Positions 2,227 through 63,654 are shown, counted from the first letter of the stretch. The stretch: 64,000 bases of DNA from Eledone cirrhosa (GCA_964016885.1 OZ024746.1:18166001-18230000), one strand, 5' to 3'. The notes: generated by a model not told the origin, from the letters alone. Program-made: numbers and translations.

Positions 2227-31749
<29,523 letters not shown>

Positions 31750-32006: not shown

Positions 32007-32206
32007 NNNNNNNNNNNNNNNNNNNNNNNNNNNNNNNNNNNNNNNNNNNNNNNNNNNNNNNNNNNNNNNNNNNNNNNNNNNNNNNNNNNNNNNNNNNNNN
32101 NNNNNNNNNNNNNNNNNNNNNNNNNNNNNNNNNNNNNNNNNNNNNNNNNNNNNNNNNNNNNNNNNNNNNNNNNNNNNNNNNNNNNNNNNNNNNNNNNNNN
32201 NNNNNN
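32007..32206. other. Assembly gap (200 N)
   Basis: Run of N; the round length suggests an arbitrary scaffold spacer. Confidence 0.99.
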
Positions 32207-33597: not shown

Positions 33598-33716
33598 CCA
33601 ATTCTCTTCAATCCGATGACACTGGTTTCAGTTCTCTGACATTGACTGAGAGAGTGGCAACTCTACAGAGACAGGTGGAACAAATGGTGGTTTTAGTTAA
33701 TTCTATTCAGACCCAG
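33598..33716 (+). CDS. Mosaic gene exon A, coiled coil (LTERVATLQRQVEQMVVLVNSIQTQ)
   Basis: tag acceptor, gtacag donor; heptad pattern; phase 0 join to the next exon. Confidence 0.7.
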
Positions 33717-39049: not shown

Positions 39050-39121
<72 letters not shown>

Positions 39122-42100: not shown

Positions 42101-45100
42101 AAGGCCATTTCCCTGAGGGGATCTGGGTTCTGTTTTCTCGTCTACTTATAAGGACCTTAGTCTTTGTCATGTTGACTTTGAGGCCCTTTCTCTCTAGTCC
42201 CTGCTTCCAGGTTTGGAATTTATTCTCTAGTTCTACCATAGATTCAGCTATGAGTGCGAGGTCATCAGCATACAGGAGTTCCCATGGGCATCCGGTCTTA
42301 AACTCCTCCGTTATTGCCTGCAGGACTATGATGAACAGGAGAGGGCTAAGAACAGAGCCCTGGTGGACCCCAACCTGTACGCTAAATTCCTCGCTATACT
42401 CATTGCCAATCCTAACTTTGCTGACTGCTCCCCTATACATGGCTTGTACCGCTTTCACAAGCCATTCATCTACTCCTAGTTTTCTAAGAGCCCACCAGAT
42501 TACTGCACGTGGAACTCTGTCAAAGGCTTCTCAAGGTCGACAAATGCCAAGTAGAGTGGCTTACTTTTAGCTAGGTACTTTTCCTGTAATTGCCTCACAA
42601 GGAAGAGCGCATCAGTGGTGCCTTTCCCTGGAACAAACCCAAATTGCATCTCGTCTATATTCACCCGGTCCCTAATCAGCTGTGCTATAACTCTTTCTGT
42701 TACTTTCATGACCTGGTCCATCAACTTTATACCTCTATAGTTTCCTCTATCTAGTGCATCGCCTTTACCTTTGTAGCAGTTGACAATGATGCTACTGCAC
42801 CAATCTTTTGGTATGGCCCCCTCTAGTATTACCTGGTTAACGATACGTGTGGTTATAGTGTGACCTACAGACCCAGATGCCTTCAGCATCTCGGCAGCTA
42901 TACCCGATGGACCGGTTGCCTTCCCTATCTTCATATCTCTGATTGCCTTACTTACTACGCTGCCGCTGACTTGTACTGCTGGTCCCTCTATAGGGTCTAC
43001 GTGGGGTAGGGTCTCTTCTTCCCATGCATTCTCCTCATTTAGTAATCTATCATAATGACTCTTCCATGCATCTTTCTTCTCAGCACTTGTGAGGGCAAGC
43101 TCACCTTTATCATTCCGGATACACTTCTCTCCAATGACATCACAACTATCTCTGACACACTGCCTCGCAATCTTGAATACCTCCTGTTTCTGGTCCTCAC
43201 GTTGTAAAACATGCTTGAATTTTCTATCCTCTGCTTCCCTCCTAGCTAAGTATACTTGTCGCCTAGCTTCCCTCTTGGTCTCTATGTAATGTACCCTGCT
43301 CCCCCCGTTCTTCCATTCTTTCCATGCCTGTCTCTTGGCCTTGACTGCTTCATCTACCTTATTGTTCCACCACCAAGTCACTCTCCTCCTGCTTGAGGTC
43401 TTACTCCAGCCACAAACCTCATCCGTCGCCTCTAGTAAGTTATTTTTTAGGAACTCCCAGTTCTCTTCTACGTTAAATGTCTCTATCTGTTCTTCTTTAC
43501 TGTCGTAGGCGTTGAGTAAAATATCTTTAAATCTGTTACTGGTTGAGGGGACTTTCAGCTTCCAGATCTTTCTTCTCCAGGTTGGCCTCTGTTTCAGGGC
43601 TCGTCTAGTTCTGACCGTGAGGTCGCTGACAACTAAGCTATGTTGGGATGTACATTCCTCACTAGGGAAGGCTTTTGTGTTTACGACCGTCCATCTGTCA
43701 CGTCCTCTGATGAGAATAAAATCTAACTGACTAGAGTGCTCCCCTGATCTATAGGTGATCAGGTGGTTGTCGGGTTTTTTAAAGTTTGTGTTACATATCG
43801 ACATGTCATTGGCGTCGCAGAATTCTAGAAGTCTGAATCCTTCCTCATTCCTTGTGCCAACTCCATGGCCTCCATGTACTCTATTGAAGCCGTCGCAGTG
43901 TTTACCTACGTGTCCGTTAAAATCTCCTGCAATGATTAGGAAGTCCTTGTCGTCTGTTAGAGCAGTAGTGTGTATTAGGGACTCGTAAAACCTATCCTTA
44001 AGTTCGTCTGGCAGCCCCGATTGGGGTGCGTAAGCTGATATTATTGTGGTAATTGTCTTATTCAGGACTAGTCTGAGTTTAATGATTCTTGCATTTACCC
44101 TGTACACTGAGATTACTTTATCTACCCACTTGTCAGCTAATAGTATACCTACACCACCCATCCCATCGTCATTTCCCACCCAGAAAAATTTGTAGCACTG
44201 GCTTTTTCCTACAAGGACTCTAGCAGACCCTCCTCTCCATCTAGTCTCTTGCACACAGCATACATCAACTTCCTTTCGCTCTAGCATTTCTACGATTTCT
44301 CCTGCTCTTCCTTTCATTGAGCCTACATTGATGGTACCAACTCGGAGTTTTGGGCATTTGTCGACACTCGTAGGGGAGGGTCTCTGGGTTGGCGCTTCAC
44401 GTGGGTGCTTGGTAGCTCGCAGATTCATATTTCATATATATATATAATTATTTCTGAAGACAGCATATATATGTGTAAAATGTTTACATAGATCTATATG
44501 ATATACATACCAACACACACATATATATCCTAGAAACGATCGTAAAATGATGAAATTTTTAATATAAGGAACTGTTTCTTTGTTTTTATTCATTGTTTTT
44601 ATTAATTTATATATATATATATATATATATATATGAGGGTCGTCTAAAAAGTTCATAGGCTGACCAATTTACTCTCGTGGAATAACCAAATGAGGTTTAC
44701 TTTTCAACATAGTCCCTGGAAAGAAACAATGCATGCGAGATTTCACAACTCTAGTATCACTCCGTCATAGTTAGCCTATAATAATGGTTTCTGATTTAGG
44801 CACAAGGCCATTAAGTCAACTCCAGTGCATTACTGGTACTTTATTTTGTCGACCCTGTAAGGATGAAAGGCAAAGCTAGTTTTGGCAGGATTTGAACTTA
44901 GAACGTAAAAGGATGTAACTATATGCTGTTAAGCATATTGTTCGATGCTCTACTGATTCTGCTAAAAAAAAAATTAAGATAACAACAGAAGAAATAACTA
45001 ATATACTTTAGAAAATATGGCAATTGATATTTGGTTAAATAAAATATAAAGGGATAACTTATATATGCCTCTTAGAAATAAAGCTTTTTTTATTGGAATT

Positions 45101-48100
45101 AAATATTTTAAAAAAGTGTGACTTTAGAATTTCATTTCTTACATAAACCTTTGGAGATTAAATGAAAATTTGTAAAATTGTTCTGAAACATTTTAGGAAA
45201 ATAGCCAAAAGAATATTGAAGAAGATTTAACTACTGATAAGGAATATAACTCAAGGAATATGTGTGTGTGTGTGGGGTGGGGGGTGGGGGGGATATTTGC
45301 CATCTAAACATAATGTGTTGATTAGTTGCCTCAGCTTATAAATGGGCTTTGGATTTTTGCCTATTTCTCAGACATAAAATCAGAAGGAGGGGGGCGTTTA
45401 TATTCAAGTATATATGTTAATTTTTTTTTGGGGGGGGGGGGGGGGGCAGCTTCAAAATTTTATTGATTTGTTTCTTTTGTAAATAATTTATTAAATTTTC
45501 TTAATTAATTATATAAATAATGAAAAAAAGGGGGAAGGTGTAAATGAGGACAGATCTGGCTGTATAGGAAAGGACTATAAATGCCATAAAGGGAAAGAGC
45601 AAGGACAATTATGTCACAGAAGAAAAAGAGGATAGAGGAGCAGTCTACTGCTTACTGTAGCTTGTTTTATTGAAGTTAGGGGCTAAAATACTTGCTTAAG
45701 GGAATTTTTTTTCTCTGAAGACCTACTATCAAGCTCTGGGAGGTTCTAACTTATCACTTTACTTTTTTTTATAGATGTACGAACTTAACTCTTCGCAAAG
45801 AAATTCGAGATTTCACATGGGAAGAGATGACCAAATTCCAGCAGGCTGTTTCCCAGCTTCGTTTGTCAGGTATTGACAATATTTGGAATAAATACCGTGA
45901 CCTCTATATGGTTCATGGCATGCATTCACATGGTGGAGTTTTCTATCTTCCTTGGCATCGGCAGTTTTTACATCTAGTTGAATTGCAGCTCCAAGACATT
46001 GACTGTGGTGTTACATTACCATATTTTGACTTTACCACCGATGCTGCTAACTTCTCAGAAGCCATTATTTGGCAACCAAATTTTTTTGGAGGAGATGGTT
46101 GGGGTTGGTGTGTTCCAGATCACCCTTTTGGGGACAGGTTCGTATATTTAATGTTGATTTTTCTCACTACCATTAAAATGTTTTGAATGAATTTTATGTA
46201 AAGAATTGTTGAGAATTTTCTATACGTTATGTATGTGTGTGTCATCATCATCATCATCTGTTGTCAGAGACCGGTCAGTACTCAAGCAAACCCTCTGACC
46301 TCCAAGTCGGCTGGGGGCTTGACATACGATCCTGGGCTCTACTTAGCACATTTTATCATAGCACTAACACTAGGAACATTGTCATGTCTTTGACATAGCT
46401 GAAGGGTTTTCCTGAGCCTTTGTTTGGTTATACTTTTCCTATCACCAACCATTTATCATGTAGTTCAACACTAGAATGGTTGTTGGGCCCCTGATACAAC
46501 TAGTCTTTTTTACCCTTTTTGCATGGTTTCTACAGGGAATAATTTTCTTTGAGCTCCTTTGACAAATGAAGTAATCCATTTGAAAATACTCACCATTTTG
46601 CATGTCAAAAATAACATTTCATCTTCAATATTTAGGAGAGAAAAACTACACTGTTCAAATAATGTTTTAAGTTAAAACTTTTTCTGTATTAAGGACTGTG
46701 GCAAGATGAAAAATAACACTTTAGGATTTTATCTGATTAAGGGCAACTAATATTTCTCATTAGACTCTTTTAGATTATTTCATTTTAATTTAAACAAGTA
46801 TTAGAGGGAGGTTGTGATGCTCCTTGTGGTGTGTGACTAATTGGCATTTTTCACTTTGATCGTGTTTTTTGTGAATTATGTTTATAAGGTTCCATGAATT
46901 CTATTTTTATGTGAAACATCATGATTATAATATATTTTTTTTTATTTTGAATTTATATTTTTATGTGTTATATTTATAAGATTTTTAAAAAATTAAACAA
47001 TTTGTTTTTAACAGTAATGCTTGGAAACCATGTTTGAAAAGGAATTTCAGCAGTATTGTACAGGTACCGACAATGCTTGATGTTGCTGCTGCTATCAGCA
47101 AAAAAGATTTTATGGAAATGAGTGAACTTTTGGAAACATTTGCTGCATATATTCATTCGTTTGTTGGTGGTGATATGTCTACAACAACAAGTGCTTATGA
47201 TCCTGTCTTCTACATCATTCACACATACATTGATCGTTTATATACCACCTGGCAAAAAATTGGCCACAACAAGTTTAAATTCCCAGCAGCATATGGAAAT
47301 ATCCCTATGGTCCCATTCAATATTGCACCACTGAATGTCCTTGATCTAGAAAATGACCTTTGTGTGACCTATGTTCCTCTGAGCAAAGGTCGACCATGTA
47401 ACAAGAGTTCACATATGCACGTGTCTGAGTTGAGTGTTGCTGAGAAAAATCCTAATATTCATGTGAAAATCATAAGTAGTTCTGGTTATAATCAGTTTGG
47501 TTATGATCCACAAGGCTTTGATCGAAGAGGCTATAATAAATTTGGCTACAACTATCATGGTAAGTGGTTGTATTTTCATTTCTTTACATCTAATATAAAT
47601 CTTTTAAATTCCAGCTAAAGCACAGATTGTAATAATAATAGATTGGCCCCGTTTTTTTTTAGGTTTCTACATTTTCTTTAAGATACTTCTGTAGAAGACT
47701 TGCGCAGATTAAAAAGAAACGAAGCCTGCATGCTCCGATGGATGTGTAATAGTAATATATGTGAACGACAAAGCATAAACGAATTGAGAGAGAGACTGAG
47801 CATAAGAGGAATCAAATGCTGTGTGCAGGAGAGGAGGTTGCGTTGGTATGGACATGTGATGCATATGAAGGATGACAGGTGCATAAAAAGGTGCAGAGCA
47901 CTAGAAGTCGATGGAAGCTGCGGAGTGGGGAGACACAAGAAGACCTGGGATGAGGGGACAAAAACCGACCTTACCCAATTACACCTCTCAAAGGCGATGA
48001 CAGATGACCGTGATCTCTGGTGTCACGCAGTAATACAGAAGACCCGACTTCCTACAGGAACAAACTGAAGCATATAGACAATACCCCCCCCCCCCTCCCT

Positions 48101-51100
48101 CCCACTGCAAAGTGGTCGTGGAGGTGCCACAGCAATAAAGCACCCAGCCCACACTGTAAAGTGGACGTGTGGGTGCCACGGAAAAAAGGCACCCAGCACT
48201 CACTGTAAATGAGATTGGTGTTAGGAAGGGCATCCAGCTGTAAAAATCATGCCAGAATCAGTTCCTGTATGAGCAAGACAAGGTCAGCCGACTGGACACT
48301 GCCCACAACAGGACAACCCGTCTAACCCATGCTAGCGTGGAAGAACGGACGTAAGACAGTAATGATGATGATGATGCTACATGCTGTTTCTCTTTCATTA
48401 AAATGCAAATTGTATTCATACTTACTTACCTCTAGCATTTCTCAGATGAATTTGTGTTTAAGTACATATAAGTTTGAAGGCTTTGAACACAGTTGTGTAT
48501 GGTAATTTGGAAGTCATTGGCATAAGATGATGTGTATACATTGTAAAGAGGTGAAAAGGGGTTGTGTATGTATAGGTCCTGCATGATAGCATTGTAAAGA
48601 GGTGAAGAGGTGTGCGAGTATTGGTCCTGCATGATTGGTCCATCTAGAAGATTTATTGAATGACAGTATTCATAGTTTTGAGTGTAACTTATAATTATTG
48701 AATAAATAAGTTTATCACAGAAGATATCAACTTTTCATTGTGTGATATCATTTATTTTATTTACGCAGGTGTTAACCGAGAAGGATTTGATACAGAGGGT
48801 TATGATTTAGAAGGATATAACAGGTATGGATTTGATCATGATGGTTATGATAGAAAAGGTTTCAATGTATCTGGCATGGATCGTAATGGCAATTTGGAGA
48901 CTTCTCGCATTTTTACCAAACAAGACTTACAACAAAAACACTGCTTAAACAGGAAAGGTTAGTATTGATTACATAAAGAATTATGGGAAAATATTAGTAT
49001 TTCCTGGATATTTCATGAAAAAAATTACATGATAAAAGCATTCAGTACACACTGTAAAGTGGTTGGTTATAGGAAGGGCATCCAGCTGTAATCTTGCCAA
49101 ACAAAGGGCTGGGAAGACCTTTCTGTTGAGTCAATGACATGCCAACCTCTCCCTGTGCATTCGATGGAATATGAGACTGTACATAATCGAGACACAGATC
49201 CCTGGCCTGTCAGAGATATCAGTGACTCCACTTCAGTACTGACTCGGCCTGTGAAGACCTGTCCAACCCTTGCTAGTAGGGAAAGTGGACATTAAAACAA
49301 TGACAACAACGATGATTAAGAAAATATATGATATATTACACACAAGTCGCAATACATGTAAAATATCATTTCTAGGAATTAGAGAACCAAAGATAAACTT
49401 CACTAGATTTTTATTGTTTTGTTTTCTTTCTTTTCAGGTCTCACTAAAGATGGATATGATCGCTATGGTTACAATATTTTTGGATATGATATAGATAGCT
49501 GTAATTACTCCTTTAACGGACCATTTACAACACTGCTAACACACCGTGTTTGGGAAATTCTTCATACCCAATCCTATGAATTTCTTGTAACTTTGACTAA
49601 AACTTGTCAACCTTTGAAACAACTTCCAGATATTTGGTACAACCAATTTTGGATGAAACTACCTGAAGAATTCGTTGTAGGTAAGTATTTATTTCATCTT
49701 TTGTTTTATTATTTTACTTATTTATTTATTATTATTTGTTTATTTTATTTATTTTTTGCTCATCATCATCATCATCATCATCACCGTTTAACGCCCATTT
49801 TTCCATGCTAGCATGAGTTGTGAATACATATTAAGTTACACATGTAATCAATGGTTCTCAACTGTGTGAATTTCTAGATGCTCCCTTTAGTCCATCATGG
49901 CTTACTAGCTCTATACGGACATTTAGATTAATTGAATAAATTAATAAAGTTGATCTCCAACTTGCACTTGCTTGATAGGTTTGGTGCCGAGTGCTGCATG
50001 GCTGGGATGAGAATCAGTGCTCCGAAAACATTCATCCTCTCATGGAAGCTTGCATAGTGCACTCTACATGTGAATGGAGTTCCACTGAAACAGGTGGCAA
50101 GGTTCAAATATCTCGGGGCTCTTCACGAGTGATGGAATGCAGAAATCTAAATTAAGTGCAAGTCAGAGATCAACTTTATTTATTTATTTATTTAATTAAT
50201 TTAAGTGTCTGTATAGAGCTAGTAATAGCTGGGAGTTTAACCTGTGATGGACTGGCGTCCTGTCCAGGAGAGAGTCTTATACTCTCAGTTGCTTCACATC
50301 AACTGGAAACTGGGATAATCACTGGCCTGATGAGACTGGGCTTGAGACATACTTTAGATATACATATTACTTCATAAACAATATTGCTTTATAATCTGTA
50401 CAATATATGTTTTGAATAAGCAAAGAACACTGGTTTCCTTTTAGTCATTACTACTTTAACAAAGTTTGTTTTTATCAGATTTGATCAAGTCAGATGTCCC
50501 TCTCCAGCAAGAAAATGATGCCTTCTCACAGAGAATTTGCTTTCCAATCGAACCTTATGTATCTCCATGTCCTTGTAATAGAGTTACAACATGTAGAAAT
50601 AACCTTTGTTTGGATGCTGAGTGTCCAAGTTATCCACAAGCCAATTGTTATGTTGATGTTTGTAATGAATGCTCACCAGTTTGGTATTTAAAAGGAAAAG
50701 TTGTTAACTGTGAAACTGTCAGAGGTAAGTTATACAATTTATTCTTGACCATACAACTCTTAAAATAAATTAAGAATAATTTTACAGTTTTACAATTTTA
50801 GATTAGTCATTTTTTAATAAAATATTTGGCCACAACATCATTACTGTTTAACATCCAGTTTCCATACTAGCATCGGTTAGAAGAGTTGTCCCATTTGAAA
50901 CAAGCGAGGTCAGGTGACCATGTCTTGTACATACAGAACTGTTTCTGGCTTGGTTTCTAGGGCTGGATGCCCTTCCTAATGCCAACCAGTGTGTGCTAGG
51001 TGCTTTTTTGTCATGGCACCCAAATGACCACTTTACAGTGTGGGGCCCACTGGTTCTTGAAATATATTTAGAATACTGGGGATAGCTCAGGATCTGTTGG

Positions 51101-54100
51101 ACAGCTGAAAACTAATGATGGCGATGAATTTTATTCTATCATTAGAAAACAATTCAACAATGAAGATTTAAAAAAAAAAAATTTTTTTTTTTTATTTTTT
51201 TTTTTATTTTAGTATACTCTATGACATTAACACTATTTTCCTTGACTGTGGCAGAGAGACTAATGCATTCATAGACACCCTATACAGAGCTTGTAATAGT
51301 GATACAGCAATCTGTGATTCAAAAGTAGTGTATTTTATTCACAGAGTAAAAGTAATTTTGTTATACTATGGATGGGTCATGCTGTCAATAAAAACACATG
51401 ATTTCACTTGAATTTATTATCATTGGTTTCATTCTATGTTATATAACAATCTCAAATTCCAAATATTTTATTGTAAAGTACATTGTGGGAAAGTCCTTCA
51501 ACAGTTATTCTGCTTCAATTTAAGTATCTATTTGTTCATGTTTTTATGTGATCTATTGACCTATCTATGCTTATGTGATGTGCTAAATTCAAAACATTTT
51601 CTCTCGACACATATTTTGCTCAGAATTGAACATGTAATCCCTCTCATTCAATTGGGTATTTATCATACCCACATAAGTGCCACCCCTACATCCATTCTCA
51701 CTACATAATGGAACATATCAGACACCTCTTAAAACACCTGCATGTCTGACAAAACGCACAGTCACATGACTGCAATCTCGTCCCCACCCAACCTCTATTT
51801 ATAGTTATGCTATTTAATATGCCTTTTGTCTACAGTCAATGACTTCTGACTCAGACAGTCATATTGGTGGTCTCTCCTCTCAGGAGAGGCTTAACTTGAC
51901 AGCCAGTTTTACTCATTTCCATTTACCTTTAATAACAATTTGTTTGTTGCAGGTGTTTATATTTTCCTTTCTTATTCCTTATAGATTATTGTCATCCAAA
52001 TCCATGTCAACACGGTGCTACATGTATCCATTCAGTGTGGCCTACAGAACCTTGGTTAGTTTCCTGTAAATGTCCACCAGGTTATGAAGGGAAACATTGC
52101 CAGTACAAATCAAAAGAAATCTGTTACCTTCCTCTAGAAAAAGGTAAGTTATTTTTTTAGGTTTATTTTTCTCCATTGCTCTATTTTCGATACATCTAAA
52201 AAAATTTGAATACTATCAAATATTTTAATTTTTTAAATTTATATTTTCTTGTATCTATTTATGGTTATGTGATTAAAGTGTTCATTTTAGAATTCCTGTT
52301 TCTGATTCAATTTCATTGCAAAGAACCTGAGATCAATATCTTTTACTGTAGTCTCAGAGTACCCAAGCTTTGTGGGTAAAATTGGGTAGCTGAAAATTGT
52401 ACAGAATCCAGTTGGGTGTACATTAGGGTGCCCAAGCATTGTGGGTGAAATTGGGTAGATGTAAATTGTGTTATATCTTGTTGGGTGGACATGACCAAAA
52501 CAGTTGAGGTCAACCAGGGAGAGGTTCCTCCAACAGAAGGGAGAAGGCCCTGGATTGGATTAGATTGGAATAAATAGATATAAAAAATAAACTTGAAATA
52601 TATTTTTATTATTACAGGTTCCTGCTCAAGAAATGTGAGCCGTTGGTACTATGACTTCCAACAGTTAAAGTGTCTTCAATTTGATTATTCTGGTTGTGGT
52701 GGAAATGCCAACTTATTTGATTCCATTGAAGATTGTCAGCAAAAATGTGTTGTTGGTGCTTGTTGTTATAGACAACAACTTAACACAGGAGTTACCATTG
52801 GCTTTGGTTCTGATGGCTTTGATAGGTAAGACTAATTACTTAACTGTTTCATCATCATCAACATCATGTTTGTTACTGAAATTAGAGTAGAATAGACTTA
52901 AGACTCCACAGTTAGTCACTGTCTCAGTTTTAACATATATATGGCTTGCATTCTTTACGATCTGAGTTCAAATCCCGCCGAGGTTGACTTTGCCTTTCAT
53001 CCTTACGGGGTCGATAAAATAAAGTACCAGTAATGCACTGGGTAATTGCTGGCCTTGTGCCTAAAGTAGAAACAATTATTGACTATTCTAAAATAAAGTA
53101 CCAGTAATGCACTGGATAATTGCTGACCTTGTGCCTAAAGTAGAAACAATTGACTATTCTCAGTCAAAAGCTCATTAGGCTGGTACTTATCTCTGGTTTG
53201 CTTGGCCCTAAAGTACAAGACTTCCTGGACAGGACACTAGTTTATCTCAAGATTAACTCCCCAGCTACTCCTGGTACTCATCTCAGCTGACTGTACTGTA
53301 GCAACATGAAATAAACTATTTTGTTCAAGAATACAATGCCGTCTAGGAATCACACTGATGACATCACAATCCTACGTCAAGCACCCTAACTCAGAGAGCA
53401 GAGAGCCCAAACAAATATCGCAAAGCATTCTATGCAATGTTCTAACGACTCTGCCAATTCACCACACTATACAACTATATAACCTCACCTAAAACATTGT
53501 TTTTACACCTATCCAAAAAAATTTTAAATAATAACCTTTCTACAAAAATGTTGACTTTCAGGTATGGGTTTAATGATAAAGGACATAACCAGCTAAGAAA
53601 GATGTTCAATGCAAAAACTGGAATGAAAATGGGTGTCAACAGATTCAAGAAAAGTGGATATGATTGGCAAGGTTTGTGACTTTATTATATATATATGTAA
53701 ACCCAATGAAATTATTTTCTAAGATTTCATTATCATGTTTTTTTGCAATGATGATCCTGAATTTTATTTAAGAAAAGTTTTATATTTATTTCTCACCTTT
53801 ATAAAGATATTTCAAAGTGGTAAGTATATTGTAAGATCATCGGATAATATATTGATATTGTGTATGAGATATTGATCATGAACAATTTTATGATAATTAA
53901 AAGATTAATCAATAATATGGTCGTTTTGGTGCCATGATAAAAAGCACCCAGTCCACTCTGTAAAGTGGTTCTTTTGGTGCCACTATAAAAAGCACGCAGT
54001 CCACTCTGTAAAGTGGTTCTTTTGGTGCCACTATAAAAAGTACCTAGTCCACACTGTCAAGAAGTTGTTTTGGTGCCAAGATAAAAATCGACCCCAGTAC

Positions 54101-57100
54101 GTTGCTGGTGCTTTATTTTATTGACCCCTTAGTGAAAGGCAAAGCTAACCTTGGCAGAATTTGAACGCAGAATGTAAGGCCTATTGTCCGACGCTCTACT
54201 TATTCTACTACCAATCCACCATCCTCAATACAAAATAATATTTTCTCTGATATAGGTTATGACAAAACCGGATTTAACTCTGTTGGTTATAACAGAATGG
54301 GTTACAATTCTGAAGGTTATGATCCGTTTGGGTTCAACATGACAGGGTACAGCAGAGAAGGTGAGTTTGATGGTATGATCGACTATAATGATGATGGCTA
54401 TGATCAAGAAGGATATAACAGGTGAGATATTTCATTGGTTGAATTATTTTCAGTGAGAAATATCATTACTTTTAATATCATCGATTTTAAAGAATAAAGC
54501 ACTTACAATGTTTTGGGTTTTTTTTCTAACTTTGGCTCAAGAATATAAATTTCTAGTAGAATGGTATATATAGGTAATTGAAGTGACTCCAATATATTAC
54601 TGGTACTGGCAGGATTTGTAAATCAGAATGTAAGGAGATGTAATTAATGGTATGGTAGGGTCCCATAACTCCTGATGGAGTTGTAAGGACGTATGGCATT
54701 TCTTGGGCATTTTAAACCTGGTAGAGCCCATCTTCTCTCCAGGTCTGAACACAGCAGATTTCTTCCAGAGAAGGATAGAAAGTGAGAGAAAGGAATATAT
54801 TTTTAATCAATGAAAGGAATAAATATTATTTTCATCACTGATCACGTATTTTTGTATATTATTGACTTTTATAATGTTAGTGTTTAACTTGGAGGAGCAA
54901 ATAAATATGTGGTAGAATGGGCTCATGTGAAATAAAATTGTTATAAATAAATTTAGCAAGTCCATTCTTTTTTTCTTTTTATAGAGCTGGCTTCAATTGT
55001 GAAGGAATTAACCGAAAAGGTTTGGATATCTTTGAACGATATGCTGGCTTTAAGTACACTTGCATAGAAAGTACAAGAAGAAGATGTCAACGCATGGAAA
55101 CTGAAGATAATATTGAAATTATTAGATTTTCCCCAGGAAAAAAATGCAAAGATATCGTTTGTAAACCAAACTGTTTGTGTTGGTTTAATAACCAATTCCA
55201 CAGGATGTTGGATAATTTCAATGTTGGTTGTGAGAAATTTCAATGTCATTTGGGAGGCTTTTCAGAAATGAATTCTTGCCAAAAACATTTTCAGCGGAAA
55301 GAGATTCGTGATATGAGTTTTGAGGAAATGAAACGCTATCAACTTGTTATCCAAAATCTACAACACGAAAAAAGAAATGGCAAATCTATATGGTATGAAT
55401 TTGCTGAAATATATTCAGAGTATATTCCTCAATTTTCAGGAAATCCTATATTTCTACCATGGCATCGGTATTTTCTGTTTATGGTTGAAAAGTCAATGCA
55501 AGATATTGAATGTGGTGTTGTCATTCCATACTATGACTGGACTCTTGATGTAGGTGTCTTGAATAAATCTGTTATTTGGTCATCAAAATATTTTGGCAGT
55601 AATGGAGAGAATGGAACAGGCTGTGTTAGATATCATCCATTTAAGTCTTATCACCCGCCATATTGGGCTCCTTGTCTCCGTAGACGATTCAATTCCTCAA
55701 TACATCTTCCAGACGCCATTCATGTTTTTCTGGCTTTACAGGAAAGTACATTTCATGACTTTTCTGCTTACATGGAATCAGTGTTACATCTTTTCCAGAT
55801 GTGGGTTGGAGGTCATATGAATTCACCTCTTAGTGCATATGACCCTCTGTTCTATTCACATATAGCCTTCATTGATAAATTGTGGGATGATTGGCAGAGG
55901 AATCAGAAAAAAGGTTTGCTAAAGTTTCCTCCTAATTTCCGATATATTCCTATGGAACCTTTCAAGGTTTCCCCTGATGATGTACTAGATTGCAAAAAAC
56001 AAATGTGTATCACCTATTTGGATTTACCATTTGGATCACCATGTAACCAGACAAAATTGAAGACTTATGGATATGACAGTAATAGTTATAATCGTCATGG
56101 TTTTGATAAAAATGGTTATGATAAAGATGGATTTAATATACATGGAATAAACATTGATGGCTATATTGATCTTAGAGGAATATATAACAATGATGGATTT
56201 GACAAAGAAGGCTTTTCTAGACAAGGTTATGATAGTATGGGCTATGACCGACATCTCTTTTACAGAGATGGTTACAATTCTGATGGTTTTGATGCTACTG
56301 GATATGATAGATCTGGTCATAATAGATATGGTTTCAGCAGAATCAAGTCAAATATTTATGGAGAACACATGTCTACATTTAGAAAGAATGAATTCAATGA
56401 ACTTGGATTAAATAATTTGGGTTTTAATAACAAAGGATTTGACATTTTTGGTTTCAACAAAGATGGCTTCAACCGCTTTGGTTGTAATTTTTATTCCAAT
56501 GGACCATTTTATATAATAATGTACCAGTCTCTTAAAAATAAACTTACTGAGATAAAATCTATGCAATCTTTGATAAATATACCAAGGCTGTGTCCTCAAG
56601 TGTCACAGTTTCCTCAGTGGATGTATAAAGTTTATTGGCTGAGCCGTCAAAAAAACATTCCTGAGGTTTTAGCCATTATGGCTTTGGACAGGCTTAAAAA
56701 TCCATTTTCATTTGAAGATGTCTTTGATAAACTTTGGATTCCTCTGATTCCAGATCAAAGGTAAACATTTAATTATTTTTTTATTAATTTTTTTTTTTTA
56801 ATTAATTTGGTATGTGATTATTGATAGTTATTGTTATTTATAGTATATATGAGTCAGATCAGGCTTCTGCCTGCTACTGGTACCATGTAATCCAGTACAA
56901 CCTGCTTTGTGGTTGGTGATTAAACCTGCTCCTCCACCAAACCAGGGTCTAGTGGAGGAGGGTAAGTTGAACCCCCAGCAACAGGGTTGTTAAAAGGGTG
57001 GATGAACTCCTCAGTCAACAGCCATCCACCCCAACTATGGGTTAAATAGCCTCACCAAACTGCAATTGGCCAAGCGTGGTGAGTACAGCTATACCCCTGA

Positions 57101-60100
57101 CATGACCAAACCAAATAGAAAGTAGTGGAAGTCAACTAGGGAGGGGTTCCTCCAACAGAAGTGAGAAGGCCCTGGATTGAATTTGAAAGTGTAATAACCA
57201 TTTAGCATGGTTAAGAAATTCACTTCGCAATCATCCCACAGCATGTCATCTTGGGCAAGTGTCATTCACCATAGTCTTAGATCAACCCATATCTTGTGAG
57301 GAAGTTTATCAGATGGACTGTTCCTGTAATTCAAAGAGTCAGCTTTGTCACACAGTGTCATGCTGAATCTCCCGAGTTGTACTTGTTTGTTGTAGCATGA
57401 AGTGATGTTACCACGGGGAAGATGGTTTTCCCATACCACATAAACAAGACACCACTCATTTTTGTTTTTATTTATAACGTAATTTACTTTGAAATCATGT
57501 GCAGCAATAAACAACGAAAAAAGAATATATGTATTGTGTCATGTGGGCAAGTATATCAATATCTGACCTGTGTTGGTAAAATGTTCTCAACTAGCGATCC
57601 CAGCAAGACTGCCTAGCGAGTGTGTGACTGTGTATATGGCTGCACTGCAAGGCTGAAACAACAAATTGTCCTTCTGAAAGTCGAAAAGCAGACTCTTTTA
57701 AGATGGGAAAATTATCTATCATTCTTCCTGCATACGATTGGTGTTGTTAATCCTACAACCAGAGAACGTTATCTAAGTTATGAAGCTCTGAGGTCGTAGG
57801 CCAGTTTTAAGGTGGTTGTGTATGGCAGACTAAGAAAAACCATCATGGGAAGATGCTGAGATTTCACTAAATATATATATATATAGTGAAGGCACATGGC
57901 TTAGTGGTTAGAACATTGGGCTTGCAATCGAAAGTTCAATTCTCGGACCGGGTGATGAGTTGTTACCTTGAGCAAGACACTTTATTTCACATTGCTCCAG
58001 TTTACTCAGCTGTAGAAATGAGATGATAGGACTGGGGTCCCTATCATTCCACTGCAAAGTGGTCATGGAGGTGCCATGGCAAAAAAGCACCCAGCCCCCC
58101 ACACTGTAAAAGTGGACGTGTAGGCGCCACGGAAAAAAAGCACCCAGCATTCACTGTAAATGAGGTTGGTGTTAAGAAGGGCATCCAGCTGTAGAAATCA
58201 AGTCAGAATCAGTTCCTGTATGAGGAAGACAAGGTCAGCCGACCGGACACTGCCCACAACAGGACAACCCGTCTAACCCATGCTAGCTTGGAAGAACGGA
58301 CGTAAAACGATGATGATGATGTGTATATATATGATCTTATTTTTAGGAGATTTGAGTATTTAAAAGAAGCATCAACATTGTTTAACTATAAAAAATAGTC
58401 TTATAAGTTATACCCTGAATATGGAAAATCTTTTGTACAGTACTGATGTCATGTTTGACTGATTAATGATAAAATGAAACTGACAAAGAATGTTTACTCT
58501 CAACAAATCCACATGTCTAAATTTGGTGGGGTGTGACAGTACTAAAAATGAATGAAATTATAATTAAGAGAAAAATGAAATTAAAGCAATTATTTTCATT
58601 AATAATTATGTTGTACTTTTCAGGTTTTGTTTGGAAACAAACTTTTTCTCCAAATGTCCACTTGGTCATGCTCCAGTAAAATGTTCATCAGATTTATGCT
58701 TCAATACAATCTGTCCTGGTAATAGCTATTCATTTTTTATCATTTCTTTTTTAAGTCAGCATTTTATTTCAAAATATTGTCCTTTATAACATTTCAATTT
58801 CCAATTTTGAAAATACCTCATATAACTTTAACTTAAGATTTGCTATATTCATATATTTTACATATATATATATATATATATATATATAAAGAGAATGTTG
58901 TCATTGTTTGCTTGAAGCATTGTGAAATATGAAATGTTGTAGTTAGGAAGCTACTACATTGTAAATATTAAGGCAACAAAACTGGGAGAAGATGAAGAAT
59001 AAAAGAAAAGAATCAGAGATAATGTTACTTTAGAAATATTTACGAACTCCCATATATTTCGGATGTACCATCCATTATCAAGGTGATTGTACTTGGTGAT
59101 AAATTTCAAAGTGAAACAATAAAGCATTACATGAAAATGTCTAACTCTTGTAAGTGTCCCCTGACCACCATCAAGCGATCATACAAACCTCCTCCTCCTT
59201 TCAGGCCCAGAAAAAGAGCAAGACAGCCATGAAACCCTTTTCCTATCAGGTCCAGAATTTAAGAGTTGCTACTATCCATGCTGGCATGATGAAAGGTAGG
59301 TGTGGAGAGATTGTGCAGATGCTAGAGCAGAGGCGTGTAGATGTATGCTGTGTGCAAGAAATAAGATGGAGAAGAGCTTCAGTCAGACTCATCACAGACA
59401 AGGAACATAGGTACAAATTTTCTGTGTGGGTAGCAGTGGTGGTGTGGGTGGTGTGGGTAGCAGTGGTGGTGTGGGTGGTGTAGGAATAATATTAACAGAG
59501 AAATGAGTAGACCAGGTAACTGAGATAGTTAGAATGTGCAATAGGATAATTAAATTTAGACTTTCCTTGAACACATCAATAGCTATTATAATCTTTGCAT
59601 ATGCTTCACAGGCTAGACTTGGAGGTGAACAAAAGAACCACATTGATGACAAACAATGGTGACCTCCTTATTGTGGCTGGGGATTTCAATGGATATGTTC
59701 GGCAAAACTGTAATGGCTTGTCCAGTGTAGATGGAGGCCATTGATATGATACAAGAAATTAAGAGAGATCAAGGGTCCTGGGTTTTTTGTGATGCATGTG
59801 ATTTAACACTAATTTCAGGAAACTAGCTAGCCACCTGATTACTTAACAATCAGAAGAGACAGGCAAGCCCAATAGATTTCATTTTTACCAGGAAACAAGA
59901 TAGATGAATGGTAATATATGCCAAGTCCTTCCCTGGTGAAGAATGTACCTCCCAACACAGATTAGTTATCAGTGACTTTAGGATAAGAATCTGATGTGGA
60001 GAAGAATGCCATAGAAGGTGAAAGAATTCTCACTTGGCAACAAATTCAGAGAAATCCTACAATATTAAAGAAGAGGAAACAGAGTCCTATAATATAGAGG

Positions 60101-62288
60101 AAAATTGAGAATTCCTAAAAGACTGCTTGCTGAAGGTCATGGATCAGGTCTGTGGCTGGGTCAAGGTCCTTGCAAGACAGAAAGTGACATGATGGTGGTG
60201 GAATAAGAGGGTAGCCAACCATAAAAGAAAAAAGATAGGCTTAAAAAGACTGGAAAAAAGGAGGAAGCAGAGTGCAATACAAGCTAGACATTAGGTATAC
60301 TTAACAGCAGGGAGAAAGAGAAAAGGAGTTTGCACATGTTCTATGTGAGATTCAGAGGCATGAAGTGTTCTAGATTGTGAGGCAGAATGTTTGAGAAAAT
60401 CGAGGCATTGAGGAAAAATGTATTTAAAATGACAGTGGAATACTTTCCCTGACTAATGCCAAAAAGAAAAAGGCACAGAAGACTTATTACAAGTGATCGT
60501 TGAACAAAGAGAATAAATAGGAGAGTGAGGGTCTACTCTAAACAGAAGCAACTGGGGGACCAGTCATAAAAGTTGATGGCATTACATTAGACAAAGAGGT
60601 TAAGGACATAATGCCATGGAAGGAAGTTGGTGGAATGATAAGGTAATGCCATAAAAACCAAAAGACAAGCCTGGAGGAGAGACTGAAAGAATAGATAGCT
60701 AGAAAGGAGGTGAGGTGCCAGGTATACCTAGCAAGGGGGAAAAGATATTTACACAGGTTCTGCATTGTGAAGATCAGAGGCATGAAGTATTCCAGATTGC
60801 AAAACAGTATACTAAAGAGAATCATGATGTGGTTTAGGAAAAGTGTGTCCAAAATGATAATGGAGGACTTGTTCTGTCTGACCCCCCCCCCTCCTGCCAC
60901 ACACAAAAATAGAGGCGTAGAAGACTTATGAGAGATTACTGAATGAAGAGAATAAATGGGACAGTGAAGGCCCACTCCATGTAGAACTAGCCAAAAAAGT
61001 TGACAGCAGTGAGATAGATAAAGCAATTAAGAATATGAAGGTAGGAAGGAAGCCGAGCTGCTAAACACTCTGATATGGTAGGTTACAAGCTACTCAGGGA
61101 AACTATAACCCACCCAGAACTTCTACCTATGCTTCTTGTCTCTCCATCTTGTCTCTTGTACACAGCACACATCAACACATCTCTGCTGTAGCATCTCCAC
61201 AATCTCCCTGGACCTACGTTTCATCGTGCTGACATTGATGTGTGTGTGTATTTGTGTGTTTTTTTTTTTTTTGTGTGCATATCAAAGAATAAATTTGAAG
61301 ATAGCTTTACAAAGATAGAAGATGTGTTAACTAACCTAGATCAAAGTGATGTTTTTTCTGGGATACTTTAAACTCCCTAACTTCCAATGATCTAAAGGAA
61401 TGTCCACTACTGAGCAAAGACAATCAGAATCCCTGCTAGAGGTTACAAGAATGTTGTTCATGAAACTAGTAGTACTACATCCAACATGAGAGAATTAAAG
61501 AATAAATCACCTAGGAAGATTTCCATCTTGTTTGTTTTTCCTGAGATTTATTTCATTTACCACAATTATGAGCAAGATCAAATACTATTCATAATTTTAA
61601 TGCTGCTTGCAATATCTGATTTTATCACATCCATAAATTTTAAAGAATTGATTGATTATTAATCTTCATCATCATCATTGTCATCATCATCACCATCATC
61701 ATAATCACCACCACCACCACCACCATCATCATCACCAACACCAACAACAACACCAACAACACCAACAACACCAACAACACCAACAACACCAACAACACCA
61801 ACAACACCAACAACACCAACAACACCAACAACACCAACAACACCAACACCAACAACACCAACACCAACAACACCAACACCAACAACACCAACACCAACAA
61901 CACCAACACCAACAACACCAACACCAACAACACCAACACCAACAACACCAACACCAACAACACCAACACCAACAACACCAACAACACCACCACCAACAAC
62001 ACCACCAACAACACCACCAACAACACCACCAACAACACCACCACCACCAACACCACCACCAACACCACCACCAACACCACCACCAACACCACCACCAACA
62101 CCACCACCACCACCACCACCACCACCACCAACACCACCACCAACACCACCACCAACACCACCACCAACACCACCACCAACACCACCACCAACACCACCAC
62201 CAACACCACCACCAACAACACCACCAACAACACCACCAACAACACCACCAACAACACCACCAACAACACCACCAACAACAACACCACC

Positions 62289-62320
<32 letters not shown>

Positions 62321-63654
62321 CACCAACACCACTTTTTCTATACTGGCATAAATTGTAGAAGTCTTTTTGAGGCAATATTCTATGACTGAATATGCTCTTC
62401 CTAATGCCAACCCGTAGTTATTTTTAATTATCATACTTTTTACACTGGTCTTTACTCATTGAATTGCTAAGCTGCAGGACACAAACAATTGTCACTGAAT
62501 GCTTTTTGTTGTTGTTTTTATGTTAACATAAAGACATACATTGAGACAAACATAATCATACACAGACACATATCCGTAGACATATATATGTGTGTGTGTG
62601 TATGTATATATATATTTATAAGAAAGCTTGCCAAATAAAGAAATTGATAGTTAAAACTATTACCCGAAATGCATGTGTGTATCTGCGTGTGTGTGTGTAT
62701 CTATATGTGTGTATGTGTTTTCTAAATTTTGTAAAAGAGGCACAGGAAGAAATTTTTATCTGGGATCAATTTTCAACATTAATTAAATTAAAATAAATTA
62801 AAATGTTTTGTTATTTCTAATATTTTTCTAAATTCTCAAAATTTCTTTTTTATTTGTAGGTGTATCAGATGTAATATGCCAACTGAACTATTGTGGAACA
62901 TGTACAGTGGAATGGTATAATGCTCACTCTGGTGAAGTTCAAGAATGTCAAGGTAATAGCTTTCTGAAATTGGGAAAATTGTTTAAAGCAATTTAATAAA
63001 TTTCAAATATAATATGATTTGCATATGTTGAGAAATAAACTTTACATTAAATTTATATATTCTATATAAGGATACAATGAGTCGTAGGAACATCAGATAG
63101 AAAGCTTTGCAGTATTCATTTTGGTTCTCTGCTCTCTGAGTTCAAATCCCGCCAAGGTTAACTTTGTCTTTCATTCTTTTGAAATTTCTAAAACTGTTTA
63201 GAACTGGTATTGTACTAGTTTTGATTCTTTCACTATATCTCTTTCTCACTTCCTCTCTCTATCCTTCTTTGGAAGAAATTTGCCATATTCAGACCTGGAG
63301 AGGTTTTTAAATGCCCTAGAAACCCCATCTATCAACTACGACTCTCTCAGGAGTTATGGGACCATACTGCATACAATGTTAGATTAAGGAATCCTCTGAT
63401 TGATATATTCAGCCATTGCAATACTTGTAGAAATAATAGAATTATGTTCCCTGTAATTATTACCTACAAGAATTAATAGTAATAAAAATAAATTTACACA
63501 AAAAAAAACTATGCTTCAAATATATGTGAATAGATCATCTTTATGCCAGTCTCTATTTTGATGAATCTTTCCAGGTTGTAAAGATGAATACAATCGGCAT
63601 AAACCTGAAAGATCATCATGGATCAACTCTGAGTGCCAAAATTGTACATGTCAG
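33598..63654 (+). CDS. Large mosaic, probably secreted protein: coiled coil-VWC-2x[EGF-Kunitz-GACC-VWC-like-tyrosinase-like-GYD repeats-Cys-rich]-VWC; partial gene span, 19 exons
   Basis: All 19 exons have AG/GT ends and mutually compatible phases and total 5195 nt of open frame. Recognisable EGF, Kunitz (YxGCGGNxNxF), VWC and tyrosinase (RKEIR, LPWHR, PY.D, VGG.M, DP.F) motifs. Confidence 0.88.
34561..34692 (+). CDS. Mosaic gene exon B, coiled coil end plus VWC-like (ERIEQLETCEC...WQPDTCTRCHCQ)
   Basis: WxPDxCxxCxC VWC motif; tttag acceptor, gtatgt donor. Confidence 0.88.
35416..35464 (+). CDS. Mosaic gene exon C (EGKPECKVRADIPGCS)
   Basis: ttag acceptor, gtaagg donor; completes the VWC GxxxC motif and bridges phase 0 to phase 1. 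Confidence 0.75.
35971..36306 (-). mobile_element. tRNA-head SINE with RTE-derived tail (internally deleted copy)
   Basis: Reverse complement of the 37271-37708 family. Confidence 0.85.
37271..37708 (+). mobile_element. Full-length tRNA-derived SINE with RTE 3' tail and (GAT)n end
   Basis: Head ggcacatggcttagtggttagagcattgggcttgcaatc...; the 3' approximately 270 nt match the LINE 3' UTR at 41008-41280. Confidence 0.88.
38153..38374 (+). CDS. Mosaic gene exon D, EGF1 plus N-half of Kunitz 1
   Basis: PCSSSPCKHGGSC...FKCLC...FSGALCE, then PSDPGYC...YYFD....CLMFNYTG. Confidence 0.92.
39371..39513 (+). CDS. Mosaic gene exon E, Kunitz 1 C-half plus GACC motif
   Basis: GCGGNVNNFQSLEECQKNTLFGACC. 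Confidence 0.92.
40185..40310. repeat. 25-bp tandem repeat, about 5 copies
   Basis: ctatctggtattgctccctgtctct is repeated. Confidence 0.85.
40637..40893 (+). CDS. Mosaic gene exon F, end of GACC domain plus VWC-like
   Basis: ...GFHPGLSCQDARC...SCHVFG...VGQEIMIGCRNCIC; cag acceptor, gtaagt donor. Confidence 0.85.
41008..44430 (-). mobile_element. Near-intact RTE-clade LINE (APE endonuclease + RT + PHD-like finger), with a single frameshift at about 42528
   Basis: APE motifs (TINVGS, VQETRW, AYAPQ, GDFNGHVG), RT motifs (NYRGIKL, QFGFVPG, GVHQGSVLSPLLF, LLYADDL), RRLRWYGHV and a (GAT)n tail. Confidence 0.95.
45775..46137 (+). CDS. Mosaic gene exon G, tyrosinase-like domain 1 CuA half
   Basis: RKEIRD...HGMHSHGGVFYLPWHR...LPYFDF...FFGGDG. 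Confidence 0.93.
47015..47559 (+). CDS. Mosaic gene exon H, tyrosinase-like domain 1 CuB half plus first GYD repeats
   Basis: CLKRNF...IHSFVGGDM...SAYDPVFYIIHTYIDRLY...GYNQFGYDPQGFDRRGYN. Confidence 0.93.
47690..48376 (+). mobile_element. 5'-truncated copy of the same RTE LINE
   Basis: Peptide RNEACMLRWMCNSNI.ERQSINELRERLSIRGIKCCVQERRLRWYGHV is near-identical to the 41310-42458 ORF; same 3' UTR and (GAT)n. Confidence 0.93.
48769..48957 (+). CDS. Mosaic gene exon I, G-(Y/F)-(D/N)-x-x repeats
   Basis: GVNREGFDTEGYDLEGYNRYGFDHDGYDRKGFN; phase 1-1. Confidence 0.9.
49438..49680 (+). CDS. Mosaic gene exon J, end of repeats plus linker (CNYSFNGPF...)
   Basis: Paralogous to CNFYSNGPF in exon P; cag acceptor, gtaagt donor. 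Confidence 0.9.
49902..50225. repeat. Imperfect inverted repeats of about 70 bp enclosing about 185 bp of RT-like sequence
   Basis: ttactagctctatac...gttgatctccaacttgcactt / aagtgcaagtcagagatcaac...gtatagagctagtaa. Confidence 0.75.
50479..50724 (+). CDS. Mosaic gene exon K, Cys-rich module (CRNNLCLDAECPSYPQANCYVDVCNEC..W...C)
   Basis: Paralogous to exons Q+R; cag acceptor, gtaagt donor. Confidence 0.9.
51985..52143 (+). CDS. Mosaic gene exon L, EGF2 plus start of Kunitz 2
   Basis: YCHPNPCQHGATC...CKCPPGYEGKHC...EICYLPLEKG. Confidence 0.92.
52618..52825 (+). CDS. Mosaic gene exon M, Kunitz 2 plus GACC
   Basis: GSCSRNVSRWYYD....[32 protein letters not shown]. Confidence 0.93.
53562..53671 (+). 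CDS. Mosaic gene exon N, GYD-like insert
   Basis: YGFNDKGHNQ...SGYDWQG; bridges phase 2 to phase 1. Confidence 0.82.
54256..54421 (+). CDS. Mosaic gene exon O, G-(Y/F)-(D/N)-x-x repeats
   Basis: GYDKTGFNSVGYNRMGYNSEGYDPFGFNMTGYSREG...GYDQEGYN. Confidence 0.9.
54985..56760 (+). CDS. Mosaic gene exon P (1776 nt): GACC end, VWC-like, tyrosinase-like domain 2, GYD repeats, linker
   Basis: The 580-aa ORF in the track; RKEIRD, FLPWHR, IPYYDW, WVGGHM, SAYDPLF; tag acceptor, gtaaac donor. Confidence 0.95.
56860..57180 (-). repeat. Interspersed repeat family (aatccagggccttctcac...; other copies at about 9771-9995, 30331-30745 and 34778-35090)
   Basis: Shared motifs ccccaactatgggttaaatagcctcacca and gtgagaaggccctggattg; class not determined. 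Confidence 0.65.
57888..58321 (+). mobile_element. Full-length tRNA-derived SINE with RTE tail
   Basis: Same family as 37271-37708; flanked by (TA)n. Confidence 0.88.
58624..58718 (+). CDS. Mosaic gene exon Q, Cys-rich module 2 first half (FCLETNFFSKCPLGHAPVKCSSDLCFNTICP)
   Basis: cag acceptor, gtaata donor; paralogous to exon K. Confidence 0.87.
59150..61238 (+). mobile_element. Degenerate, rearranged RTE LINE 5' half (APE region)
   Basis: LRVATIHAGMMKGRCGEIVQMLEQRRVDVCCVQEIRWR resembles the 42500-44428 N-terminus; many stops; internal duplication at about 60600-60960; short inverted piece at about 61100-61238. Confidence 0.82.
61667..62331. repeat. Compound (CAT/CAC/CAA)n trinucleotide repeat in an intron
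   Basis: CAN triplets organised into 9-, 15- and 12-nt higher-order blocks. Confidence 0.95.
62860..62952 (+). CDS. Mosaic gene exon R, Cys-rich module 2 second half (VICQLNYCGTCTVEWY...ECQ)
   Basis: tag acceptor, gtaata donor; paralogous to exon K. Confidence 0.87.
63575..63654 (+). CDS. Mosaic gene exon S, VWC start (GCKDEYNRHKPERSSWINSECQNCTCQ); gene continues beyond the window
   Basis: W...CxxCxC motif; cag acceptor, gtaaga donor. Confidence 0.85.

Follow-up and report, generated by a model that had tools for sequence, protein, structure and literature searches.

Hexamerins play a storage or structural role. Together with the arthropod pseudohemocyanins/cryptocyanins, they are type-3 copper proteins in which one to five histidines have been lost (excerpt of PMC7828413). 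TYRP2 binds zinc with its histidine coordination kept (excerpt of PMC3658974). Vertebrate Kcp, one of the kielin/chordin-like proteins (KCPs), is secreted, augments BMP signalling and inhibits TGF-beta signalling, as stated in an excerpt of PMC6750614, and the available literature passages on frog and mammalian Kcp do not mention the tyrosinase-bearing cassette considered here. Databases already assign PF00264 to such KCPs, and long tyrosinase-domain outliers with a kielin/chordin-like domain are mentioned in passing in section 10 of PMC11667028, whose main text contains neither 'histidine' nor 'inactive'. Excerpts of PMC3334994, PMC10244343 and the Argonaut eggcase preprint hold no description of the fusion or of a dead domain, and we found no account of the lost ligands, the cassette or a choanoflagellate link in the literature, supplements and subscription journals aside. 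The 'KCP' of PMC6003135 was set aside, being a Kunitz protein and not kielin.

We analysed a 64,000-nucleotide stretch of Eledone cirrhosa DNA (hereafter the window) that encodes two tyrosinase-like domains, D1 and D2. By sequence homology, the host of D2 is a putative kielin/KCP, which the initial annotation had overlooked. As in known KCPs, the relatives have an N-terminal coil and VWC, 22-33 VWC domains and a VWD domain, but they carry in addition one or two cassettes (EGF, Kunitz, G[Y/F]D repeats and an apparently dead tyrosinase) that are missing in Xenopus and reptile models. D2 resembles the alpha-subclass tyrosinases (Streptomyces 1wx2, Priestia megaterium) in fold (Z 30.4, TM about 0.8) and scaffold motifs, but it has one of six ligand histidines and sits inside a giant multidomain protein. 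It shares the loss of copper-ligand histidines with pseudohemocyanins and hexamerins; those proteins, however, stand alone, whereas D2 is a domain in a signalling regulator, and its closest fold is not an arthropod hemocyanin-type (beta-subclass) subunit (Z 6-10 to hexamerin and arthropod hemocyanin versus 30 to tyrosinase). TYRP1 and TYRP2 likewise combine a tyrosinase fold with changed chemistry (D2 reaches Z 25.1 to TYRP1), but TYRP-like zinc enzymes keep six histidines, a pattern absent from D2. Choanoflagellate Kunitz-tyrosinase proteins, the top non-animal hits, share the module order in the four sequences read whole, but five of seven have six histidines, and a membrane-type end, judged by eye, takes the place of the VWC array.

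A kielin/chordin-like gene with two tyrosinase cassettes

The window has the composition of AT-rich, intron-rich animal DNA, and the proteins closest to its products come from the octopod Argonauta hians. Our gene model comprises 18 exons from 34561 to 63654, all with AG/GT boundaries and together holding 1692 codons without a stop, and these exons match, in order, residues 264-1945 of the Argonauta 'kielin/chordin-like protein' (3774 aa). This 84%-identical orthologue contains, beyond its cassettes, 22 stretches of VWC and one VWD domain. The encoded order is a coil, VWC1, two successive units of EGF, Kunitz, linker, tyrosinase-like domain, G(Y/F)D repeats and Cys-rich end, and then the VWC array, with the following features:

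33598..35464, + strand: KCP N-terminal putative coiled-coil exon (from 33598) and first VWC (34561-34692, 35416-35464)
38153..50724, + strand: cassette 1, eight exons flanked on either side by a phase-1 intron (EGF, Kunitz, linker, D1, repeats, Cys-rich end)
45775..47559, + strand: D1 (exons 45775-46137 and 47015-47559), predicted tyrosinase fold, ligand positions Y,H,H / A,H,H, four of six histidines
51985..62952, + strand: cassette 2, seven exons flanked on either side by a phase-1 intron (EGF 51985-52143, Kunitz 52618-52825, repeats, D2, repeats, Cys-rich end)
54985..56760, + strand: D2 exon, 1776 nt (Cys-rich/VWC-like linker, D2, G[Y/F][D/N]xx repeats, helical tail)
55295..56044, + strand: D2, predicted tyrosinase fold, probably copper-less, ligand positions Y,S,H / L,Q,I
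56063..56482, + strand: pentapeptide repeats (G[Y/F][D/N]xx) that follow D2, unmatched in the atlas
63575..63654, + strand: first VWC-array exon after the cassettes (tblastn to Argonauta KCP residues 1919-1945; splice sites)

The N-terminal coil and VWC1 exons are 72% identical to residues 224-307 of Argonauta KCP and homologous to this region of named KCPs; the VWC1 match (E 9e-05) falls short of the Pfam threshold, the exon being partial. The shark KCP N-terminus, used as a query, recovered named kcp proteins from lamprey to reptiles, including Xenopus. By eye, a hydrophobic leader starts the shark, Lingula and crinoid KCP models; the corresponding 5' exons of the window gene are out of view, and at the other end the window stops after the first VWC-array exon while the gene continues. 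Overall, the host architecture reads (LamG)-coil-VWC1-[EGF-Kunitz-repeats-Tyr-repeats-Cys]x1-2-VWC x22-33-VWD, in which a cassette of about 750-900 residues is inserted after the first VWC domain. Because each cassette starts and ends at a phase-1 intron, either could be duplicated or skipped in frame.

The D2 exon is bounded by AG..GT splice sites and matches Pfam Tyrosinase (E 8.9e-24), and all the motifs previously cited for D2 are present in frame on the + strand within this single exon. One assembled contig (X1), possibly from the source sample itself, shows 0 differences from window positions 54766-56768. Another (X3), from a run without a record as RNA, has one difference over 54983-56762 and joins this segment directly to 54254-54419, the intron being absent as in a spliced transcript. 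A contig from a second species (X6) has 164 differences and no gaps over 55041-56763; the 20 of these that were listed, all outside D2, fall in 18 codons (11 synonymous) and are uninformative on D2. A further run (X5) gave only short pieces of the exon. Since the X1, X3 and second-species contigs match, the D2 sequence is real and not an assembly error.

Copper-ligand positions of D2

At the type-3 copper-ligand positions, D2 has one of six histidines, and the other five are replaced:

55412..55465, + strand: degenerate CuA site, with CuA1 Tyr46 (codon at 55412), CuA2 Ser54 (55436) and CuA3 His63 (55463, the sole canonical ligand)
55784..55864, + strand: degenerate CuB site, with CuB1 Leu170 (55784), CuB2 Gln174 (55796) and CuB3 Ile196 (55862)
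CuB region, + strand: non-ligand histidines His171 (55787), His180 (55814, specific to the D2 class) and His195 (55859)

This register was obtained from a gap-free local alignment with six-His tyrosinases, from HMMER alignments to solved hemocyanin units, and from the published anchors around CuB His3, Phe at -4 and Asp at +4 (excerpt of PMC3658974). In the hemocyanin-unit alignments, where CuA1 falls outside the aligned part, Ser, Leu, Gln and Ile of D2 stand opposite the histidines of CuA2, CuB1, CuB2 and CuB3. In D2, each H3 position is preceded by a Phe at -4 (Phe59 and Phe192) and CuB H3 is followed by an Asp at +4 (Asp200); both CuB anchors select Ile196, not His195. Neither the CuA motif H1(n)-H2(8)-H3, as given in an excerpt of PMC3658974, nor the CuB motif H1(3)-H2(n)-H3 is present.

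These results agree with the initial annotation in placing Tyr and Ser at CuA His1 and His2, Leu and Gln at CuB ligand positions, and the only clearly canonical ligand at the PWH histidine. The loss of His1 had been deduced by alignment to domain 1, which cannot demonstrate it, as D1 also has Tyr there. The FYSHI segment had been read as a CuB histidine one residue off; the loss of CuB His3 stands (Ile196), but the supposedly shifted residue is the conserved His195 of the HH motif. Because both anchors select Ile196, His195 is the neighbouring non-ligand histidine, which is matched beside the ligand in 95/95 non-redundant six-His tyrosinases. His171, at position CuB1+1, occurs in 2/19 non-redundant D2 sequences, so that the idea of a dicopper site rebuilt from shifted histidines, raised earlier as a possible objection, finds no support in either residue. 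Single His-to-Ala changes at CuA of a type-3 enzyme from a plant left one copper and no diphenolase activity (excerpt of PMC4364613); D2, with five ligands gone, would not plausibly hold a dicopper centre.

Predicted fold of D2 and of the whole exon product

An AlphaFold2 model of D2 (93 sequences) reached a pLDDT of 95.9 and a pTM of 0.93 and shows the four-helix tyrosinase fold. Foldseek aligned it to bacterial tyrosinases with TM 0.79-0.83, and VIA-align superposed it on the Streptomyces tyrosinase 1wx2 over 235 residues (Z 30.4, rmsd 1.9 A). The retained fold that had been proposed for D2 is borne out in these predictions, for which both folding alignments included six-His enzymes (many in A1, two in A2), favouring the tyrosinase fold. 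The model of the whole exon product (590 residues, 42 sequences) gave a pTM of 0.87, with pLDDT 70-93 for most repeat blocks, and suggests that D2, the linker, the repeats and the helical tail form one compact unit. Fold searches with this model returned matches to tyrosinase-type folds only. In the ESM Atlas, D2 matched generic tyrosinase clusters only, and the repeat region after it had no match. The G[Y/F][D/N]xx repeats occur at 56063-56482, 47484-49500 and 53562-54421 and have no Pfam or atlas match; those after D2 are nevertheless predicted to be ordered, and the repeats may bind calcium.

Ligand loss and conservation across the family

We then scored the ligand columns in related domains, the rows counted of 207 being 36 D2, 11 D1, 7 choanoflagellate-group and 130 other. 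In the D2 class (n = 47), 0, 1, 2 and 3 histidines were found in 4, 21, 17 and 5 sequences, respectively, class counts omitting partial domains that miss ligand columns. CuB His1 is absent from 58/58 animal domains, none of which has more than four histidines, while six are present in 110/130 other hits. Ligand loss thus scored is family-wide, and the description of D2 as a pseudoenzyme is upheld by its five replaced ligands and by the limit of three histidines in 47/47 class members.

D1 is likewise probably defective as an enzyme. Its replaced ligands are Tyr at CuA1 and Ala at CuB1, and sequences of the D1 class (n = 11) have 0-4 of the six histidines, with Tyr at CuA1 in 11/11, CuB His1 absent in 11/11 and His at CuA2 in 4/11. 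All 11 have an extra histidine three residues after the CuA1 Tyr (window codon 45914-45916), on which a D1-specific metal site may be built. Another histidine often lies two residues before CuA His2.

D2 is identical to its counterparts in Argonauta, Lingula, Limulus and shark at 210/250, 125/247, 129/249 and 124/244 positions, respectively, and is at least as conserved towards Argonauta as its neighbours (EGF-Kunitz, 82/102; VWC1, 29/38). At least 90% conservation was reached in 45/252 columns, whereas in the former ligand columns (n = 19) the commonest residue accounts for 5/19 sequences at CuA2 (nine residue types) and 7/19 at CuB3 (eight types). This pattern argues for long-term purifying selection on the D2 scaffold while the former ligand columns drift. 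The earlier view that D2 is intact and not decaying is consistent with the frame, open over 18 exons, and with the identities to Argonauta and shark.

Distribution among animals

The cassette is present in the KCP of Argonauta, Lingula, Limulus, amphioxus, a crinoid, sharks, coelacanth, sturgeon and salamander. Both domains occur in Argonauta, Lingula and Ptychodera. Among the models examined, the D1 class is found in Patella, Owenia, Branchiostoma and the crinoid Anneissia, the crinoid model having D1 only, and the D2 class in Limulus, Tachypleus, Macrobrachium and vertebrates; the model from Limulus lacks its 5' part and starts with the apparent end of a first cassette. Full-length models of shark, coelacanth, sturgeon and salamander pass from VWC1 straight into a single D2-class cassette, and D2 therefore persists without D1. 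The domain is found in 11 of the 72 KCP hits to the shark N-terminus, namely in seven models from cartilaginous fish and in those of coelacanth, Huso, Prochilodus and the salamander Pleurodeles; the other 61 lack it. As far as models go, from which genomes may differ, it occurs in 0/18 reptile models and was not found in the KCP models of Xenopus, two caecilians, lungfish and lamprey. A search for short, mammal-sized KCPs returned four fish proteins and no mammal and is uninformative on mammalian absence. No cnidarian or sponge member was identified among the hits, many of which are unnamed.

Coelacanth has models with and without the cassette; those without it lack precisely the stretch that begins with EGF and finishes where the Cys-rich segment stops. 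Huso and Polyodon show the same exact in-frame presence and absence, and in both comparisons the boundaries match the phase-1 introns of the window. These differences may reflect alternative splicing or annotation. In three comparisons (P0205 with P0206/P0207, P0209 with P0208, and P0036 with P0222), the same or related fish kcp appears with, without or split from its cassette, and here alternative splicing or systematic mis-annotation is possible. In database entries for teleosts the cassette often stands by itself as an uncharacterised protein or gene, and no single transcript joining the cassette to the VWC array was seen among the data analysed here.

Phylogeny and choanoflagellate relatives

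Trees were built with FastTree from 170 of 207 domains and with IQ-TREE (SH-aLRT) from 64 selected rows. The animal clade and its split into D1 and D2 classes received FastTree supports of 0.976, 0.975 and 0.978 and SH-aLRT values of 98, 98 and 87.5. Because both trees split the animal clade by class, the D1/D2 duplication would predate the protostome-deuterostome split.

The nearest non-animal relatives form a clade of seven proteins, five of them named from choanoflagellates (Salpingoeca rosetta XP_004987702, XP_004992948 and XP_004991800; S. urceolata; Hartaetosiga balthica). Six histidines are present in 5/7; the other two, both named copies, have 4/6 and 3/6, and with two choanoflagellate copies also degenerate the timing of ligand loss is uncertain. 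The four members read whole have the order Kunitz, repeats, Cys linker, tyrosinase, repeats and Cys, and by eye they end in a hydrophobic membrane-type segment, not a VWC array. This group is sister to the animal clade in FastTree (0.915), a placement not recovered in IQ-TREE, where its position is unresolved; the common architecture is stronger evidence than the trees for the link. Tyr-rich repeats flank the domain in 14/14 cassette-bearing animal and choanoflagellate-group proteins scored for repeats, and P0054 and P0055, which are not cassette proteins, have none. The choanoflagellate proteins P0048, P0051, P0052, P0056 and P0069 are large surface proteins with Kunitz domains, Tyr-rich repeats and tyrosinase, some with six histidines, for which self-cross-linking or attachment roles are speculation. 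Our literature search found no paper on choanoflagellate tyrosinases, and in an excerpt of a survey of type-3 proteins (PMC3658974) Monosiga is said to have none, Salpingoeca going unmentioned.

Proposed role of D2 and alternative explanations

We consider it probable that D2 is a non-catalytic structural or surface-binding module; within this reading, a tether role seems to us as apt to be wrong as right. An extracellular tyrosinase module with six histidines, of the kind found in choanoflagellate membrane proteins, would have been exon-shuffled into KCP, would then have lost CuB His1, and would have been duplicated into the D1 and D2 classes before the protostome-deuterostome split, the cassette later being dropped or skipped in some lineages. 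Side chains would occupy the emptied metal site, and D2 would form the rigid core of a globular head built with the repeats and the helical tail. The conserved outer surface of this head would bind a matrix or cell-surface partner, and the partner-bound head would position the BMP-binding VWC array. Such a D2 would perform no dicopper chemistry and would have no need of domain 1.

The emptied pocket might alternatively act as a non-catalytic receptor for tyrosine, DOPA or a phenolic side chain, offered by a partner or by the Tyr-rich repeats. Retention of CuA His3, the GG-x-M loop and the DP-x-F motif would suit such a receptor, as would the repeats, which flank the domain in all 14 proteins scored and are ordered in the whole-exon model, but the ex-ligand positions, with their nine and eight residue types, vary in a way unlike a conserved pocket, and we regard this explanation as unlikely. 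Slightly less likely still is a remodelled single-metal (Zn or Cu) site with a structural role or new chemistry, formed by His63/His195 or by the D2-specific His120/His180, with D1 perhaps using its extra histidine. The D2 class retains CuA His3 and His195 in 15/19 sequences each and His120 and His180 in 18/19 each, the latter two being found in only 0% and 4% of six-His enzymes (n = 95); given these conserved residues, some metal or ligand role for D2 is possible. The extra histidine present throughout the D1 class and the CuB His2 kept in D2 of shark, sturgeon, coelacanth and salamander also fit a single-metal site; against it, D2 of the window has one canonical ligand and 4/47 D2 domains have none. 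His120 (55634-55636) and His180 (55814-55816) lie outside the copper site and possibly constitute a new site.

That D2 scaffolds or regulates a catalytically active D1, as the initial annotation had suggested, now seems very improbable. Both domains share one reading frame in the window, Argonauta, Lingula and Ptychodera, and D1 keeps more histidines than D2; D1 itself, however, has only four of six, its whole class lacks CuA His1 and CuB His1, and CuA2 is His in only 4/11. Regulation of domain 1 is further disfavoured because the full-length vertebrate models have the domain-2 type alone, and the crinoid model, conversely, has D1 alone. It is hardly credible that the domain is decaying neutrally, or that a dead tyrosinase gene was joined to kielin by an error of assembly or annotation. 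The absence of the cassette from most of the KCP hits to the shark query, its frequent annotation as a separate gene in teleosts and an N gap just upstream in the window would fit such an origin, but the frame is open across 18 exons, the sequence is supported by reads and a spliced contig, identity to shark, brachiopod and horseshoe crab is about 50%, and the same insertion point recurs in independent annotations from several phyla. Conservation largely rules this explanation out.

A broader version of the structural or surface-binding module is more tentative, and we think it rather unlikely as a whole: the ancestral bilaterian kielin would have been a chimera in which a pre-animal cell-surface tyrosinase module entered a BMP regulator and was disarmed into a skippable ligand- or matrix-binding head, possibly with a His120/His180 site, that switches KCP between tethered and diffusible forms. 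Sharks, coelacanth and salamanders would have kept this head, and frogs and amniotes would have lost it. If this holds, the mammalian and Xenopus KCPs so far studied would be a truncated form. 

KCP, known from frog and mouse as a VWC/VWD protein, has a large extra module in many animals; in BMP signalling, the turning of an enzyme into a scaffold through exon shuffling can thus be put to the test. The family represents a bilaterian-wide clade of alpha-fold pseudo-tyrosinases, the dead type-3 proteins that we found described being arthropod hemocyanin derivatives. When tyrosinases of molluscs, fish and others are counted by Pfam, these domains, which are probably inactive, are among them.

Other features of the window

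A 200-N gap at 32007-32206, which may represent missing sequence or a misjoin, separates the kielin gene, whose 5' exons it removes from view, from a gene for a WW-HECT E3 ligase, which it truncates at the 3' end; the WW exon of the latter lies near 17014, and its HECT exons extend to 31698. Intronic satellites lie at 17758-23621 (23 bp x 255 copies, 95% matches) and 27079-28454 (43 bp x 32 copies). Domain 1 is preceded by an intron that contains a LINE-like element (41310-44431, - strand) encoding an endonuclease and a reverse transcriptase in two overlapping frames, with a PHD-like Cys insert, and a CAC/CAA tract occupies 61712-62332.
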